Below are positions 7,514 through 14,213 of a stretch of 14,966 nt of DNA, one piece after another. Position numbers and translations under genes: made by a program. This DNA comes from Leptolyngbyaceae cyanobacterium RU_5_1 (GTDB taxonomy: Bacteria > Cyanobacteriota > Cyanobacteriia > Leptolyngbyales > Leptolyngbyaceae), in the NCBI GenBank assembly GCA_012034055.1, contig JAAUSG010000128.1, forward strand, positions 1 through 14,966, given 5' to 3'. The notes below the pieces were generated by a model. It was not told where the DNA came from, ran no database searches, and was given only the letters and a program-made list of their open reading frames with translations. Within the stretch, counting starts at the first letter, position 1; every line of letters starts with the position of its first letter.

Positions 7514-7544
7514 TCAACGGGAAATTTACGCCGGGAAAGTTTCC

Positions 7545-7572
7545 ATTTTTAATTTTGCATTTTGCATTTTGA
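7545..7572. repeat. Heptamer array ATTTTTA ATTTTGC ATTTTGC ATTTTGA
   Basis: Four tandem 7-mers, 21 bp upstream of the DUF255 start. Confidence 0.7.
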
Positions 7573-7592
7573 ATCGTTAATTGTCTTTTTCT

Positions 7593-9663
7593 ATGCCCAA
7601 TCGCCTTGCCCAATCCAAAAGCCTCTACCTGCGCAAACACGCTGAAAATCCCATCGACTGGTGGCCATGGTGTGATGAAGCGCTGGACACCGCACGACGC
7701 GAGAACAAGCCCATTTTTCTTTCGGTCGGTTACTCCAGTTGTCACTGGTGTACGGTGATGGAGGGGGAAGCCTTCTCGGATGGTGCGATCGCGGACTACA
7801 TGAATGCCAACTTCGTGCCGATCAAAGTGGATCGGGAGGAGCGTCCTGATCTGGACAGCATCTATATGCAAGCGGTTCAGATGATGATTGGGCAAGGGGG
7901 GTGGCCCTTGAACGTGTTTCTCTCCCCCGATGATCTGGTGCCATTTTATGGTGGGACGTATTTTCCATAGAACCTCGCTATGGGCGACCGGGCTTCTTCC
8001 AGGTGTTGCAGGCAGTGCGCCGCTACTACGATGTTGAAAAAACGAAGCTGCAGTCGATTAAGTCGGAAGTGTTAAGCAATCTCCAGGGGACGGCTGTTTT
8101 GCCACCCGCGCAAGAATTAAGCCGTGAACTGCTGCAGCAAGGACTGGAATACAACACCGGCGTAGTTTCCTCCAAGTCTCTTGGTTCCAGCTTTCCGATG
8201 ATTCCCTATGCAGAGGTGGCGTTGCGATCGCGGCGATTCACCGTCGAATCCCGTTACAACGCCAAAGAAGTCAGCACCCAACGGGGACTGGATTTAGCAC
8301 TGGGTGGCATCTTTGATCACGTTGGCGGTGGTTTCCATCGTTACACCGTGGATCCGACCTGGACTGTGCCCCACTTTGAGAAGATGCTCTACGACAACGG
8401 ACAGATTGTGGAGTATTTAGCAAACCTGTGGGCGGCCGGAGCACAGGAACCCGCGTTTGAACGCGCGATCGCCCTTACCGTTCAATGGCTGCAGCGCGAA
8501 ATGACTGCCCCCGAAGGCTACTTCTACGCTGCCCAGGATGCCGACAGTTTTGTCGATCCCAGTGAAGCAGAACCCGAAGAAGGCGCTTTCTACGTTTGGG
8601 ACTATCCAGATCTAGAAGCATTACTCACTTCAGAGGAGTTGGCAGAACTGCAAGAACAGTTCACGGTAACTGAAAATGGCAATTTTGAGGGCTACAACGT
8701 TCTGCAACGACACCATCCCGGCAAGTTGAGCGACTCCTTAGAGACCGCACTGTCCAAGTTGTTTCAGGCACGCTACGGCTCCTCTGCAGCCGACCTGTCC
8801 GTCTTTCCCCCTGCCCGCAACAATCAAGCCGCAAAAACCACCCCCTGGGCAGGTCGCATTCCGCCCGTCACCGATACCAAAATGATTGTTGCCTGGAACA
8901 GCCTGATGATTTCTGGGTTAGCACGGGCATCAACTGTATTTCACCAGCCAGATTATCTGGAATTAGCCATCAAGGCCGCCGACTTTATCGGCACCCATCA
9001 GTGGATCAATGGACGCTTCCATCGCGTTAACTACGACGGTCAGGCAGATGTGTTAGCGCAGTCCGAAGATTATGCATTGTTCATCAAAGCGCTATTGGAT
9101 TTGCATCAGGCTATGCAGGGGTCAGGAACCGAATCTGAAACCTGGAACCTGAAACCTGAAACCTATCTCGATCGCGCCCTCAAAACCCAATCAGAATTCG
9201 ACGAATTCCTCTGGAGCATTGAGATGGGTGGTTATTACAACACCGATGCCAGCCGCGATTTGCTGGTTCGGGAGCGCAGCTATGCCGACAACGCCACACC
9301 CGCCGCCAACGGAGTAGCGATCGCCAATTTAGTGCGATTGGCCTTGCTAACAGAGGACCTCAGCTATCTGGACAAGGCAGAGCAAACGCTGCAGGCGTTT
9401 GGGAGTGTGATGGAGCGATCGCCCCAATCGTGCCCAGCCTCTTCTCCGCACTCGACTGGTTCCACAACCACACCCTGATCCGCACCACTACCGACCCGCT
9501 GGCAACCCTTGCACCCCAATACCTACCCACCACTGTTTACACTTGGGAGCCTAATTTACCAGAAGGGGCTGTCGGATTCGTTTGCCAGGGTTTGAGCTGC
9601 CAAGAACTCGCCCGCAGCCCAGAACAGTTGCTAGAGCAGGTCGCAAATATACGATTCTCTTGA
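7593..9663 (+). pseudogene. Thioredoxin-domain protein (DUF255 / YyaL / SPATA20-like), frame broken twice (ORFs 7581..7970, 8003..9478, 9430..9663)
   Basis: The N-terminus [29 protein letters not shown]...[20 protein letters not shown] is the DUF255 thioredoxin-like domain. The first ORF ends ...GGTYFP*, and the next frame reads EPRYGRPGFFQVLQAV from 7970, so one base is missing between 7967 and 7970. The second break is at 9431-9437: ...RSPQSCP in one frame and SLFSALDWFHNHTLIRTT in the next. Confidence 0.85.
9135..9162. repeat. Intragenic heptamer array CTGAAAC CTGGAAC CTGAAAC CTGAAAC
   Basis: Four tandem 7-mers inside the DUF255 reading frame, translated as ...SETWNLKPETY... Confidence 0.8.
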
Positions 9664-9774
9664 AGATGCACCGAACTATCCAGACGATTTCTACCCAGCT
9701 CAGGATGGTGTACAGAGGCTAAAAGTCAAAAATCAATTTCTACTGGCAGAGCTGAGAAACGTCGAACCTGGTGA

Positions 9775-10137
9775 ATGGCGAAAAGTTTATCAAGTCAAGA
9801 TGGAGCAACTAATCAAATGGCAATCCCGGTAATCGCGATAGTTTTGAGGCTGGCAGAGCGGACAGAAATTGAACGCTGGGTTGCTGTGATGAGTCTGGGA
9901 ATTTGTGCAGCGATCGCAGACGGCAGTATGAGCATTGAGACAGCCGAATCCCGACTGTTTAATCCCCGAACACTAGTACCTCACGGCATAAATCAGCCAA
10001 CCGTAGAGACGTTACATGTAACGTCTCTAGAGGGTCAACGGTTGTTAAACTTATGCCGTAGACTACTAGGGATTTTAAGCGAACTGGAACATTCAGGTCG
10101 TTCCAACTCCCAGGCTCAGCAATGGATGCAGACTTGA
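9775..10137 (+). CDS. hypothetical protein (weak call)
   Basis: A 120-codon ORF with no motif I recognise. It contains a 26-bp perfect palindrome, so the opposite strand encodes the same LETLHVTSL peptide. It may be spurious or a remnant. Confidence 0.25.
   Translation: MAKSLSSQDGATNQMAIPVIAIVLRLAERTEIERWVAVMSLGICAAIADGSMSIETAESRLFNPRTLVPHGINQPTVETLHVTSLEGQRLLNLCRRLLGILSELEHSGRSNSQAQQWMQT
10004..10029. repeat. 26-bp perfect palindrome TAGAGACGTTACA|TGTAACGTCTCTA
   Basis: Read directly. Both half-sites are exact reverse complements. Confidence 0.95.
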
Positions 10138-10207
10138 GGAAGAATGGGTTGCGATCGCCTACCTGCTGCGATTTCCTTTCCAATGTGCTTTGATTGGGCA
10201 AAGTGAA

Positions 10208-10315
10208 TTAGAGAGTATTGTCTGCGATGTTAATCACGTCGTGAACTGTTTGAGGCAATCGCGCATCATTTGTAACCCACCAGAGGGGAGTGTGGGTGTC
10301 AAGTAAGGCTTTCAT
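10208..10315 (-). pseudogene. VapC/PIN-domain toxin N-terminal remnant (35 codons)
   Basis: MKALLDTHTPLWWVTNDARLPQTVHDVINIADNTL* matches the typical VapC start (MKxLLDTHxxLWW...D..L), including the first catalytic Asp. It stops where full-length PIN proteins continue for ~100 aa. I found no antitoxin ORF in any upstream frame. Confidence 0.5.
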
Positions 10316-10530
10316 AGTAGCGTTGCTGCCAATCCACGAACCGCGATCAACCCTCATTCCAGCAAGTGCGATCGCGGCGAGTGCGCGATCGCAACTTACC
10401 CATAGGAGCTTAAGACGCCTAACCCATCCTTTTAGATCACACAGTGCTGCTCCACAACCTAGTTTCAACTTCAACGGTTGCATCTGACTTAAGCAAGCGG
10501 GGTGACTGGGAGTGCGTCATCCGTTTTGGA

Positions 10531-10833
10531 TGCTGGATAACTCCGGAGTCCAGGGTGTTATCCGTCAAAAATGCTGGATAACACCCCCTATTTCCAGACT
10601 TAACCTGCAAATCTGCCGGATAACATCTCAAAAGTCGGACTTAACCCGCAATTTTTTGGTTTAAATCCTGAAAACTTGGGGATTATCCAGCAAATGTGCA
10701 ATACAACCGTGGAAATCGAGGATGTTATCCAGCAGATTTGCCACTGATTACCTAGTTATGCGGCTTCAAGTTATTTGTGAAGGCAATACATCCAGGTTGT
10801 CTAGCTGAGTTCACAGCCTCAGGATGTTATCAG
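10531..10833. repeat. Phased array of TGCYGGATAAC(A) motifs: three direct copies, then two to three inverted copies
   Basis: Direct copies: 10531-10541, 10572-10583, 10614-10625 (spacing 41 and 42 bp). Inverted copies: 10683-10692 and 10723-10734 (spacing 42 bp). Weaker copies: 10557-10564 and 10823-10833. There is a 20-bp inverted repeat with one mismatch (10608-10627 vs 10721-10740) and a 14-bp direct repeat GACTTAACCYGCAA (10597-10610 and 10638-10651). Confidence 0.8.
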
Positions 10834-10870
10834 TCAGTAACAGCAGGTAAAGTTGATAAGGAGCTAAGTA

Positions 10871-11680
10871 TTGAGCTTTATGCAACCAATTCAAGCCGAT
10901 CAACTCATACCGCTCTCGATTTCAGACAGATTTCAATTGATTGAAGAGTATGCAAAATTGGTTACTGTACCTGCTGAATTGAACTCCGATCTACATCGTG
11001 CTTACCAGATTGCAGCCGTACTCACACCAGCCTTACCTAACTTTATCCAATACCAGATTCAAGTAGATATTTCTCACGGATCTATTTTTGAGGGGGATCG
11101 CCAATCTACAGCGATTTCAAATGAGTGTGAACAGTTTGCAAATCGCTTTATCGACACCATCCCATCATTAGTCAGATCTCCAGCAGAAATGGAAGTCAAC
11201 CCACGTAATCTTTACGAACTGTGCGGAGCCGCAGTCTTTGTTGAAAGCAATTCAATCTCCAGACAGTTAAGTAGACCGATGGGAGATCTTTGGGAGACAA
11301 TCGCTAACATTAGTCCCTATGCGATCAGCCCAGAAAAAGACTTTGGGATCAAAATTACGGGTATTGATTCAGTTCTTCTGCGTCAAGGAAAAGGTGCCCC
11401 TGTATTTGTACAAATCAAAACACAGCGGAATACCCTCACAGGAAGTCAAGCACCGAGATCAAGAAGTGAGCTAGAATTTCATCAGAATCGACTTTTCGCA
11501 GCCGCTTTTTGTACAGGAGGTAATTGGACGTTCTCAAGCACAAGTATTCGCCGCGCTTGTGGTGCTGAATTTTGGTCTATGGTAGGACTTGATTATGAGT
11601 TACTGAAGTTTCATGTAAAGCAGATGATACTCAAAATTCAAGCCGCTTACATAGACTTTCAACAGAAGACTCCCTTGTGA
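10871..11680 (+). CDS. hypothetical protein; candidate Type II restriction endonuclease partner of the adjacent C5 methyltransferase
   Basis: AAGGAG lies 7 nt upstream of TTG 10871. The gene is convergent with the MTase, with stops 19 bp apart, and shares its AT-rich composition. It has a PD-(D/E)XK-like arrangement: ...LWETIAN...ITGIDSVLL-x12-VFVQIKTQRNT (D...QxK). I see no similarity to a named enzyme. Confidence 0.6.
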   Translation: MSFMQPIQADQLIPLSISDRFQLIEEYAKLVTVPAELNSDLHRAYQIAAVLTPALPNFIQYQIQVDISHGSIFEGDRQSTAISNECEQFANRFIDTIPSLVRSPAEMEVNPRNLYELCGAAVFVESNSISRQLSRPMGDLWETIANISPYAISPEKDFGIKITGIDSVLLRQGKGAPVFVQIKTQRNTLTGSQAPRSRSELEFHQNRLFAAAFCTGGNWTFSSTSIRRACGAEFWSMVGLDYELLKFHVKQMILKIQAAYIDFQQKTPL

Positions 11681-11699
11681 CAGGAATAAAAAAATTGCT

Positions 11700-13130
11700 T
11701 TATATCAGAGATAGGGACAGTTGTTTTATGGAACTAGAATGGGAGTTTTCTAAAACATCTATTTCCCAACTAATATCATTAGTCTTTAGATATCGAGAGT
11801 AGGGAAAATCCTTAAAAACAATTGGCTCCACCCCGTTCAAGTGGTTTACTAACGTCCTACCAATTGCCCGACCAAGAGAACAAGGGACGGCATTGCCAAC
11901 CTGTCGATATTGATCAAGCAGACTACCCTCAATAATCCAATCATCAGGGAATTCTTGTATACGTTTATACTCCTGAATACTAAGAGGTCGATCCTCTTCT
12001 GGATGTGCTAAATCTGTTGCAGGCATTGCTGGGTGAGTAACGAGTGTAGGAGAAGGTTTATCCCAAGCTAATCTCCGATAAAAACCTGTTTTTCCACCTC
12101 CGGCATGATATGACGCTCCTAATGCCTCTTGTTGCAAGTTCACCGGTAGATCACGCCAGTATTGCCCAGGCTTGAGAAGTCGATAATATTTGAGGCGCTT
12201 ATCTGGAAATTTAACAAAATTGTGTCGATCTTTCGGCAGTCCTGTCAGTGCATCTCTGAGGGTCTTCCACTTCGGTAGTTCATATAAGCCTTTCTCAGAA
12301 TGAGTAGGCGTGAGGTAGGGGAGCCTTTCTCCATCTCGACTACAAATAATAACGACTCTTTCTCGTTGCTGAGGTGAGCCAAAATTAGCTGAATTGTATA
12401 GGTTGAAAGACACACCATAACCTGCATCTTTCAACTTACGAATGATGTTGAGAAGTGCTCCTCCTCTTTGTTCTTCCTGAGAAAGTGGTGGATATTGACT
12501 TCCTCTCATTTCATGGGGTCTGTGCTTTAACGGAGCAGATAATAACCCTCGGACGTTTTCGATAATTGCAAATTTAGGTCTGAGTTCAATAATCAAATCG
12601 ACAAACATTAGAAATACATTGCCCCGCTCATCATTGAAACCTTGTCTCTTACCAGCACTACTAAAAGCTTGGCATGGTGGACCACCAACCATTACATCAA
12701 TATCTTCTTGAGGTGTTAGTCCTGCTTTTTCTCTGATCTTGCTAGCTGAATAGTCTCTGATATCGCCAATTAGAGCGATATCAGGTTTATTCGTTTCGAT
12801 TGTCCTTCGTGCTGCTTTATCTACTTCGCAAGCAAGGATTACTTCAATTCCTTCTTTTTCCAGCCCCAAATCAAGTCCCATGCAGCCAGAAAAGAAGCTT
12901 AACGCCTTCAAAGTAGGTTTGCTAGAAGACCGTCTCTCATGATCTGGAACAACAGAATCTGGTTCATTTTCTTTATAGCGATATTCATTAGCCGATTTTG
13001 ATGCGATCACCCATCTATTACTGACCAATTCTCCGCTGAGTTCACCACTCCTAAGCAGCTTGCGAACATATTGTTCTGAATAACCAAGCATTTCAGAGGT
13101 TTCTTTTACAGAAAAATATCCTGTGGACAT
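11700..13130 (-). CDS. DNA (cytosine-5)-methyltransferase with N-terminal excisionase/MerR-type helix-turn-helix
   Basis: C5-MTase motifs are present in order: I FFSGCMGLDLG, II ACEVD, IV GGPPCQAFS, VI ENVRGLLS, VIII QQRERVVII, IX RRLAWDKPSPTLVT, X QVGNAVPCSLGRAIG. The N-terminal ~50 aa (FSVKETSEMLGYSEQYVRKLLRSGELSGELVSNRWVI) fit the HTH_17/excisionase pattern. Start placed at ATG 13130; the 21 extra codons of the ORF-track start run through the promoter. Confidence 0.92.
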   Translation of the reverse strand: MSTGYFSVKETSEMLGYSEQYVRKLLRSGELSGELVSNRWVIASKSANEYRYKENEPDSVVPDHERRSSSKPTLKALSFFSGCMGLDLGLEKEGIEVILACEVDKAARRTIETNKPDIALIGDIRDYSASKIREKAGLTPQEDIDVMVGGPPCQAFSSAGKRQGFNDERGNVFLMFVDLIIELRPKFAIIENVRGLLSAPLKHRPHEMRGSQYPPLSQEEQRGGALLNIIRKLKDAGYGVSFNLYNSANFGSPQQRERVVIICSRDGERLPYLTPTHSEKGLYELPKWKTLRDALTGLPKDRHNFVKFPDKRLKYYRLLKPGQYWRDLPVNLQQEALGASYHAGGGKTGFYRRLAWDKPSPTLVTHPAMPATDLAHPEEDRPLSIQEYKRIQEFPDDWIIEGSLLDQYRQVGNAVPCSLGRAIGRTLVNHLNGVEPIVFKDFPYSRYLKTNDISWEIDVLENSHSSSIKQLSLSLI

Positions 13131-13164
13131 GAGTTTCGCCTGCGAAACTAGAATTAGGTACCCT

Positions 13165-13193
13165 ACCCTAAGACAAGTACAGTTGTTTTGCAA
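13165..13193 (-). promoter_or_regulatory. Candidate sigma70-type promoter of the methyltransferase
   Basis: The minus strand reads TTGCAA (13193-13188), then 17 nt, then TAGGGT (13170-13165), about 35 nt upstream of ATG 13130. This is pattern match only. Confidence 0.3.
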
Positions 13194-13226
13194 GTCCTAT
13201 AAGCTTCTGAGTCCTATAAGCTTCTG
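13193..13226. repeat. Perfect 17-bp tandem duplication AGTCCTATAAGCTTCTG x2
   Basis: Read directly (13193-13209 and 13210-13226). Each copy contains an AAGCTT palindrome, and the repeat abuts the putative -35. Confidence 0.95.
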
Positions 13227-13265
13227 TGTTAGTGCTATAGTTTCCCAAATGCCGACAGCCGTATA

Positions 13266-13879
13266 ATCGGGTAACCGGGGGATTTTCTCCCTCAGTCCCC
13301 ACAGCACCCCACGTGCGGATCCGCATGGGGCGCTTCCTCAAAGAGGTTTAGACAATTCAGTTCCGAAGCACTGATGTCCAGGGTTGGCTACACAATTAAG
13401 CGCCGACCATTCAGCTCCCCCGTCCAGGTTCATCGCCCCGTCGAGCTTTGCGGCTCCTCCCTGCTCTTTGAAGTTCAGCCCTTCACCTTGTTTCATCCTT
13501 ACGATGAGCGTTTGGCTACTCTGGCCTCTGCTGACTTCTGCTCAATCATGACTGGCGTTGCCACCCTTCACGCTGCCTGTATTCCCCTAGGGTTCTGTGG
13601 GGTGTCGATTCGTTTCCAAATCGCCCTCAGTCCGACTCCCATAGGTTCACAGACCGCCTCTTGAGCAGATCTCCCCAGATCACCGTGAACTGTCGCTGCA
13701 CAACCGCGTCATTTACTGTGTCCCTTGAACCAAAAGGCTTTGTGATGTTGTGCTCACTTGCCACAGGGATCTCAGCCTGCTATGACATTTCTGTCCGTCG
13801 GCTCGCAGCTTTGCCGCCAGCTTCCTGCAGACCCTTCCTCGCGGAAACGCCCTTGCCTTAAGCTAGTCGTTATCGTCAC
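13266..13879 (-). mobile_element. ORF-less group II intron-like ribozyme (3' end well defined, 5' end uncertain)
   Basis: The minus-strand RNA at 13334->13303 reads AGCGCCCCA-UGCG-GAUC-CGCA-CG-UGGGGUGCU, which is domain V architecture with an AGC triad and a 2-nt bulge. The RNA at 13300->13269 folds as a hairpin with one bulged A (opposite t13272), 7 nt before a terminal ...GAU at 13266; this fits domain VI with a branch-point A and a 3' AY. There is no minus-strand ORF of 60 aa or more in the region. There is no canonical GUGYG; the nearest match is GUGAC at 13879. Confidence 0.6.
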
Positions 13880-14213
13880 TCGATTTTTCGATCATTTGGA
13901 CATGGCGTGAATATCCCGATAGTTGAAATGTAGTTGTTTGCATATGAACTTACGGCTGCTGCTGCCGGAAGCGTTCAGGCCGTGCGCGCCGACCTCCGCT
14001 GATGTGAGCGCCGCCTGCCGGCCCTATTGGAGGCAAAATGCCGCTGCGTATCACAATTTTGTGACAGCGCAGATACGATCATGCCGCCCGACCGCAACGA
14101 CGCGTGCGGACGCATCGCCATGCTGGTCGCGATCCTTTCGCCGTCGGCCGTTTCGTGCATAGTCTGGCGCAAGCGCACTATCACCACGGAATCGAGGAAG
14201 ACGGGCCAGCGAA

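Follow-up and report, generated by a model that had tools for sequence, protein, structure and literature searches.

A phased box array beside a cyanobacterial restriction-modification cassette is probably an orphan integron attI site

We analysed a stretch of 14,966 nucleotides from Leptolyngbyaceae cyanobacterium RU_5_1 (the window), in which a phased array of short repeats in both orientations stands at the left edge of a restriction-modification (R-M) island. With a probability of roughly 85%, this array is the attI site of a cyanobacterial chromosomal integron, whose integrase gene (intI) has been lost except for a stub and at whose core an R-M cassette is docked. The array is a known kind of site, the integron attI, in an expanded form with about ten boxes, and it is an orphan copy; read from left to right, the window holds the intI stub, the multi-box attI, a two-gene R-M cassette and an attC disrupted by an intron. 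Four observations carry the assignment: the place beside intI, a cassette boundary that is exact, attC sites downstream and the resemblance to the DR1 and DR2 repeats of attI1. The family to which the array belongs adjoins the start of a divergent integron integrase gene (in the window, a stub of ~15 codons), the cassette joins at the G|TT of a GTTRRRY-type core on the side nearest to it, and co-oriented cassettes ending in attC follow (the attC of the window was seen in the copy of a relative, G280). To our knowledge, attI has been characterised for only a handful of integron classes, and we found no description of a cyanobacterial attI in the literature searched.

The motif TGCYGGATAAC, with at most one mismatch, was found six times within a span of 204 bp, at 10531, 10572 and 10614 on the plus strand and at 10557, 10682 and 10724 on the minus strand. 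For the whole 15-kb window 0.49 matches were expected, and none of 200 shuffled sequences reached six. These positions confirm the phasing described in the sequence-only reading, with steps of 41 and 42 bp between the direct copies and of 42 bp within the inverted pair; the copy at 10557, regarded there as a weaker one, is real and belongs to the family. The repeat unit of the array is longer than 11-12 nt and reads about TGNNGGATAACACCC. Weaker boxes occupy the gaps (ACTTAAC at 10598 and 10639, GTTTAAA at 10659, and a decayed box near 10701), and strong and weak boxes together make ten, following each other in steps of 19-23 bp, that is about 21 bp or two helical turns. All of them are variants of integrase core boxes (xxxTAAC or GTTAxxx).

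The anatomy of the boxes was worked out by reading of the sequence together with the family profile. Box A (10531..10541, plus strand, TGCTGGATAAC, with the 7-mer GGATAAC from 10535) is a motif match and is conserved in the family. Box B (10557..10567, minus strand, GTTATCCGTCA on the plus strand, 7-mer GTTATCC from 10557) was recovered by motif match, inverted repeat and family profile, and box C (10572..10582, plus strand, TGCTGGATAAC, 7-mer GGATAAC from 10576) by motif match and family profile; the inverted-repeat search joins the two into the palindrome GGGTGTTATCC-N12-GGATAACACCC. The weaker box C' follows (10594..10604, plus strand, CCAGACTTAAC, 7-mer ACTTAAC from 10598), of which the TTAAC is nearly invariant in the family, and then box D (10614..10624, plus strand, TGCCGGATAAC, 7-mer GGATAAC from 10618). 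Box D' (10636..10645, plus strand, CGGACTTAAC, 7-mer ACTTAAC from 10639), supported by sequence reading and family profile, and box E' (10658..10668, minus strand, GGTTTAAATCC on the plus strand where the family consensus is TGTTTAATTCC, 7-mer GTTTAAA from 10659) are again of the weaker sort. Box E (10682..10692, minus strand, ATTATCCAGCA on the plus strand, 7-mer ATTATCC from 10682) forms in the family a palindrome with box F (10698..10707, plus strand), which in the window has decayed to GCAATACAAC (7-mer at ~10701) from a family consensus of GGATAAT. Box G (10721..10735, minus strand, GATGTTATCCAGCAG on the plus strand, 7-mer GTTATCC from 10724) stands 19 nt from the crossover G and is followed by the crossover region (10736..10761, plus strand), a tail ending in CACTGATTACCTA and the core GTTATGC from 10755. 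The family-conserved region as a whole, comprising the end of the stub, the box array and the crossover core, covers 10495..10757 on the plus strand (nhmmer with the family profile, 233.7 bits).

Several symmetries run through the array. Boxes B/C and E/F are 34-bp palindromes of the form TTATCC-N12-GGATAA, and boxes D and G are the left and right arms of an inverted repeat of 21 nt with 95% complementarity (10607-10627 / 10721-10741), in agreement with the long inverted repeat that had been noted between the innermost direct and inverted copies. A still longer inverted repeat has arms of 58 nt and 74% complementarity. The 42-bp tandem repeat that had also been noted was recovered as a 26-nt match at 77% identity, but Tandem Repeats Finder reported nothing. 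A scan of 10400-10900 with the sigma-70 consensus gave no promoter, a consensus that cyanobacterial promoters may not fit. DnaA boxes were considered and ruled out: the copies are dispersed, and with TTATCCNNCA the box exceeds TTATCCACA by one base.

The array proved to be one copy of a dispersed family of ~265 bp with several copies in its own genome. A search of the assembly (5.6 Mb, 382 contigs, 88% complete) with the family profile returned three full copies (C123:10497-10758, C180:2455-2713 and C326:6046-6277), three truncated or rearranged ones (on C265, C162 and C195) and one solo right end. The latter (C56:6589-6649) consists of box G, the tail and GTTAGG, follows directly after rmlD with the rest of the element absent, and has no mobile gene nearby. 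The genes beside the own copies vary and include endonuclease III with an M50 peptidase, an HNH nuclease, flavodiiron proteins and rmlD. The motif does recur in the genome, a condition under which the sequence-only reading would have taken it for an ordinary dispersed repeat, but it does so only as further copies of the same phased array. We also considered whether stub and attI together make up a mobile unit with G|TT at both sides, and we do not claim this: the left edges of the copies on C123, C180 and C265 agree only within ~15 bp, and that on C326 differs.

Beyond this genome, the family is present in 10 of 41 close relatives, and a search started from another copy found it in 39 of the 401 cyanobacterial genomes sampled, representing 29 of 170 genera; an exact-pattern scan gave matches also in metagenome-assembled genomes of Gloeobacterales and Thermosynechococcaceae. 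In total, 57 unique copies were gathered from many cyanobacteria. Conservation of the array in relatives without the island had been named beforehand as a sign of a native regulatory region. The array is indeed kept in such relatives, which we read as pointing to an integron platform rather than to a native regulatory region. The three full own copies form one clade and vary at 13 of 108 family-conserved columns versus 32 of 117 (Fisher p=0.0045). The lower variation suggests that constraint continued after duplication even with the integrase missing, which is compatible both with an integrase acting in trans and with a different binding protein.

In relatives the element stands just before the start of a bona fide integron integrase gene, which reads away from it. 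Locus L034, for example, has a tyrosine recombinase with SAM_4 and integrase domains ahead of the element and in divergent orientation. The integron-integrase model TIGR02249 (cut-off 265 bits) was passed in 127 of the 401 genomes, and at 30 integrase loci the element was found directly at the integrase start in six, with a weak partial match in one more. Nine of the 57 copies abut an intI covered over its full length (fragmented or frameshifted in three of the nine), and the IntI beside such copies scores ~480 bits against TIGR02249. A further 11 abut 5' fragments of intI encoding 32-160 aa, one of these with an IS630-type transposase inserted in it, and for the other 37 no intI could be detected; cross-tabulation showed that an integrase match is absent from 10 of the 39 element-bearing genomes. 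The left edge of the family is accordingly a graded series of intI truncations with no fixed end. At L042 / L021 (Thermosynechococcaceae MAG; G012), a 77-aa 5' fragment of intI lies 1.1 kb from the array, and the space between the two holds a transposase gene of the IS630 type (DDE_3); insertion of this type is one concrete route of integrase destruction.

In the window, alignment with the intI-linked copies identified the intI remnant at 10476..10520 on the minus strand. It keeps the start codon (10520->10518), placed by this alignment 10 bp from box A, and ~15 codons (MTHSQSPRLLKSD..), beyond which homology to intI is lost (10520->10476). The own copies on C180 and C265 have intI stubs of similar length. 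Elsewhere in the own assembly (88% complete), TIGR02249 and tblastn gave weak Xer-like matches only and no intI, so the copy in the window cannot act in cis.

Conservation across 40 copies stops at ..GAATAYATAG|TT, which in the window is 10755|10756, and in these copies the bases after G|TT fit GTTRRRY or nearly so. Strand exchange would thus be placed, from the sequences, between G10755 and T10756. The same position was reached from the cassette side. A blastn comparison of the window with the corresponding region of G280 (another genus of the same family) gave a single block, 10755-13266, with 88.4% identity over 2514 bp, so that cassette homology begins at the G of the core GTTATGC, and the claim that the array marks the left boundary of imported R-M DNA holds to the base. 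In the window, the right end of the block is the 3' boundary of a group II intron, while in G280 it runs straight into an attC (GTATAAC...GTTATTC; 35 bits, E=3e-7 with our covariance model R1). As the block starts at the core and, in G280, ends in an attC, the R-M pair is a two-gene integron cassette docked at attI (10756..13266, plus strand, ending in the first bases of its attC). It contains a 269-aa ORF (10871-11680, plus strand), which has an 87%-identical homologue in G280, and a C5 methyltransferase with a fused HTH (11700-13193, minus strand), recognised with Pfam.

The group II intron (13267..13848, minus strand), delimited by Rfam matches and by comparison with the G280 junction, lies in the R'' box of the attC of this cassette; the junction reads GTATAA|intron in the window versus GTATAAC... 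in G280. Within 10700-14000 of the window, neither the fold-based finder nor the covariance model with its filters off returned an intact attC, and the intron-split attC of the window is deduced from the G280 relative and the position of the intron. The weak copy of the motif formerly listed at 10823 lies inside the R-M cassette, and since the surrounding 10820-10839 is letter-identical in the G280 cassette, which adjoins no array, this copy is not part of the array. The identical block, CAGGATGTTATCAGTCAGTA, lies 66 bp into a cassette that overall is 88% identical, and 32 bp upstream of the 269-aa ORF; possibly it serves the R-M pair as promoter or operator, and perhaps the HTH-fused methyltransferase in particular. 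In G280 (locus L118, G280:C1:5808000-5827000, at ~7661-10240) the cassette stands directly after the stop codon of a SNF2-type helicase gene (..AAGTT|GTTATAC), with its attC intact and neither an attI array nor an integrase nearby, as would be expected of a lone cassette that had entered at a secondary GTT site.

Downstream of intI-linked copies, canonical attC sites (R'' ..TAAC and R' GTTAG..) were recovered by a fold-based search, and six of them were used to build R1. Between them, the fold-based search and R1 found co-oriented attC sites after the intI-linked copies at L075, L076 and L077, and likewise after the orphan copies at L035, L040 and L041 and on C326 of the own genome, where the order is array, HNH gene, DUF5615 gene, attC. 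The motif TTATGCGGCTTCAAG that follows the crossover in the window is also seen after attC R' boxes in these genomes. Locus L077 (G281:C82) holds a second, partial copy of the array at 8436-8595, only the right half, ~2.8 kb downstream of the intI-linked copy and in the same orientation, within the cassette array and flanked by a 75-bp repeat of 90% identity (7538-7611 / 8888-8962). In the own genome, where no integrase is detectable, R1 located about ten attC sites on many contigs with 34-57 bits: C62:6892-6975 and C62:7396-7483, the two being ~500 bp apart, C88:8468-8551, C139:13977-14064, C188:9998-10085, C264:6978-7060, C14:2993-3081, C306:27087-27143, C65:2640-2726 and C326:4396-4482.

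The ~265-bp family was met only beside IntI proteins that share 75-100% identity. Where identity falls to 58-66%, the IntI clades come with arrays of another make, with a phase of 40-42 bp and different GTTA/TAAC-type boxes (TTAGGCAGA..GTCTAAC, CCTAATCA and TTCCGTCTAA), which again end in GTTAGC-type cores. Such a tracking of IntI clade by box sequence fits integrase-specific sites and could also be produced by linkage of neighbouring DNA alone. In the arrays at L052, L058, L046, L072 and L073, all of other IntI clades, there are four to five units at the 40-42-bp phase, each a TTAGGC-like plus a GTCTAAC-like box that resembles a miniature R'/R'' pair, and the arrays end in GTTAGCC-type cores.

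The attI1 site of class 1 integrons consists of a simple site, L and R, and of the accessory IntI1-binding repeats DR1 and DR2. The sequence used for it matched at 100% in at least 5000 plasmids. As in the array, attI1 lies between a divergent intI and the first cassette, has its crossover at the G|TT of a GTTRRRY-type core, and carries upstream of this core co-oriented accessory boxes that contain GTTA. Box G (GATGTTATCCAGCAG) is identical to DR2 at 13 of 15 positions and to DR1 at 12 of 15, in the same orientation, and its distance of 19 nt to the crossover G compares with 20 nt for DR1 in attI1. In contrast to the four sites over ~65 bp of attI1, the array of the window spreads about ten boxes of either orientation over ~225 bp, some of them paired into 34-bp palindromes, on a regular lattice of ~21 bp, with the intI start codon only 10 bp from the first box; moreover, its host is a cyanobacterium, the integron is chromosomal and the integrase gene is gone from the window copy. 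With ten lattice boxes against four sites, the analogy may be incomplete.

A second comparison is with attP of phage lambda, whose arm sites (P1, P2 and P'1-3) require IHF/Xis and are recognised by an N-terminal domain that Int has for them separately; we know of no integron integrase with such an arm-binding N-terminal domain. Both systems have several recombinase sites in both orientations and a crossover core within ~250 bp, and the wrapped complex of attP would have its counterpart in the array, but the core of the array is at one end and not in the middle. The window also shares with CALINs the presence of cassette DNA without a neighbouring integrase gene. Cury et al. 2016 (PMC4889954) require of a CALIN two or more attC sites with no integrase close by, propose loss of intI as one origin and report recognisable intI pseudogenes near only 5% of CALINs; the same authors, those of IntegronFinder, treat attI as unknown for most integrons and hence not searchable (PMC4889954). 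We did not class the window as a CALIN: it keeps an attI and a short intI stub, and a single attC, split by the intron, can be deduced in 10700-14000.

Taken together, the sites suggest the following arrangement. In intact relatives, intI starts ~10 bp to the left of box A and reads leftward, and to the right of its start ~225 bp with about ten GTTA/TAAC-type boxes in both orientations, ~21 bp apart, lead to the GTTRRRY-like core where cassettes are joined at G|TT. In the window, intI has been deleted save for ~15 codons, the 2.5-kb R-M cassette has docked at 10755|10756, and a group II intron has later split the attC of that cassette. The sequence-only reading was right in seeing a multi-site, phased array at the edge of the island, and most likely the array binds a recombinase. 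By analogy with IntI1 at L, R, DR1 and DR2 of attI1, the protein on the boxes would be IntI, with integrase monomers occupying core and accessory boxes. With its boxes spaced along one face of the helix, the DNA could wrap up into a single nucleoprotein complex able to capture a cassette by its folded attC, and the boxes would also overlap the divergent promoter region. The integrase-less copy in the window may still be used in trans.

The same features could in part be expected of an integron control region in which the repeated boxes bind a host or integron-linked transcription factor for the integrase and cassette promoters, and only the terminal core recombines. The 34-bp palindromes B/C and E/F are typical of dimeric regulators, and with the intI start codon a mere 10 bp away from box A, the array has to contain the promoter of intI. 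The own copies, moreover, kept their conserved columns at the variation given above (13/108 vs 32/117, p=0.0045) in a genome without detectable IntI, and an integrase match is missing from those 10 of 39 element-bearing genomes. However, the boxes are of the GTTA/TAAC type, like integrase core boxes, box G reproduces DR1 and DR2 of attI1 in its sequence as well as in its orientation and its distance, the boxes differ in sequence from one IntI clade to another, and no candidate regulator gene travels with the element. We consider such a control region unlikely, though it is by a good measure the strongest competitor of the attI reading.

Far less probable, and contradicted by the results, is a miniature inverted-repeat element (MITE) with halves that derive from a Tn7-, Mu- or IS21-like transposon by collapse of its two ends, each with several transposase sites, as proposed in outline before. 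The family is dispersed in six to seven copies with varied gene contexts, the own copies are one clade and the boxes point inward from both sides, all of which a MITE would explain. But alignment of the copies with their flanks, for the own and ~25 foreign ones, revealed neither terminal inverted repeats nor target-site duplications, no transposase lies beside them with the sole exception of the gene of IS630 type found within an intI remnant, cargo between the halves is absent from all 57 copies, no parent element was found, and the edges are those of graded intI truncations on the left and of an integron core on the right. The iteron or centromere-like array that had been offered beside it is likewise rejected, with no rep or par genes adjacent and the neighbours being housekeeping or cassette genes. 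Least credible of all, and contradicted too, is a structured non-coding RNA gene or leader with the inverted repeats as stems: the 58-nt arms at 74% and the 21-nt arms at 95% complementarity might be so read, but RNAalifold on 35 copies gave -3.3 kcal/mol with a covariation term of +0.12 and eight pairs with practically no compensatory changes, the array region has no match in Rfam, and it is the motif sequence that is conserved and not the pairing.

If the array is an attI, one structure accounts for the repeat array, the R-M island and the intron of the window, and a complete two-gene R-M system can travel as an integron cassette. The family would then be a searchable attI signature for one large cyanobacterial integron lineage and a direct marker of cassette loci that arose by loss of the integrase gene. 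The arrays of the other clades are evidence toward multi-box phased arrays being general in cyanobacterial integrons, with box sequences tracking the integrase clade. More speculatively, and with odds well short of even, such integrons might be 'distributed': several integrase-less attI pads per genome would be maintained by selection, and an integrase from another locus, or one that arrives transiently, would act on them in trans. Each pad would be a lattice of about ten same-face boxes over ~225 bp and, in contrast to attI1 with its four sites, would wrap into a large complex with the integrase. In that case the pads and not the integrase gene would be the stable part, and they would double as promoter modules for docked cassettes.

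A further regularity was seen at several loci, where the extended consensus GTTAGSY-NGCTYNAAG, reaching past the canonical 7-bp core, occurs both after attC R' boxes and at attI cores. This indicates that the first ~15 cassette bases in these integrons are not free.
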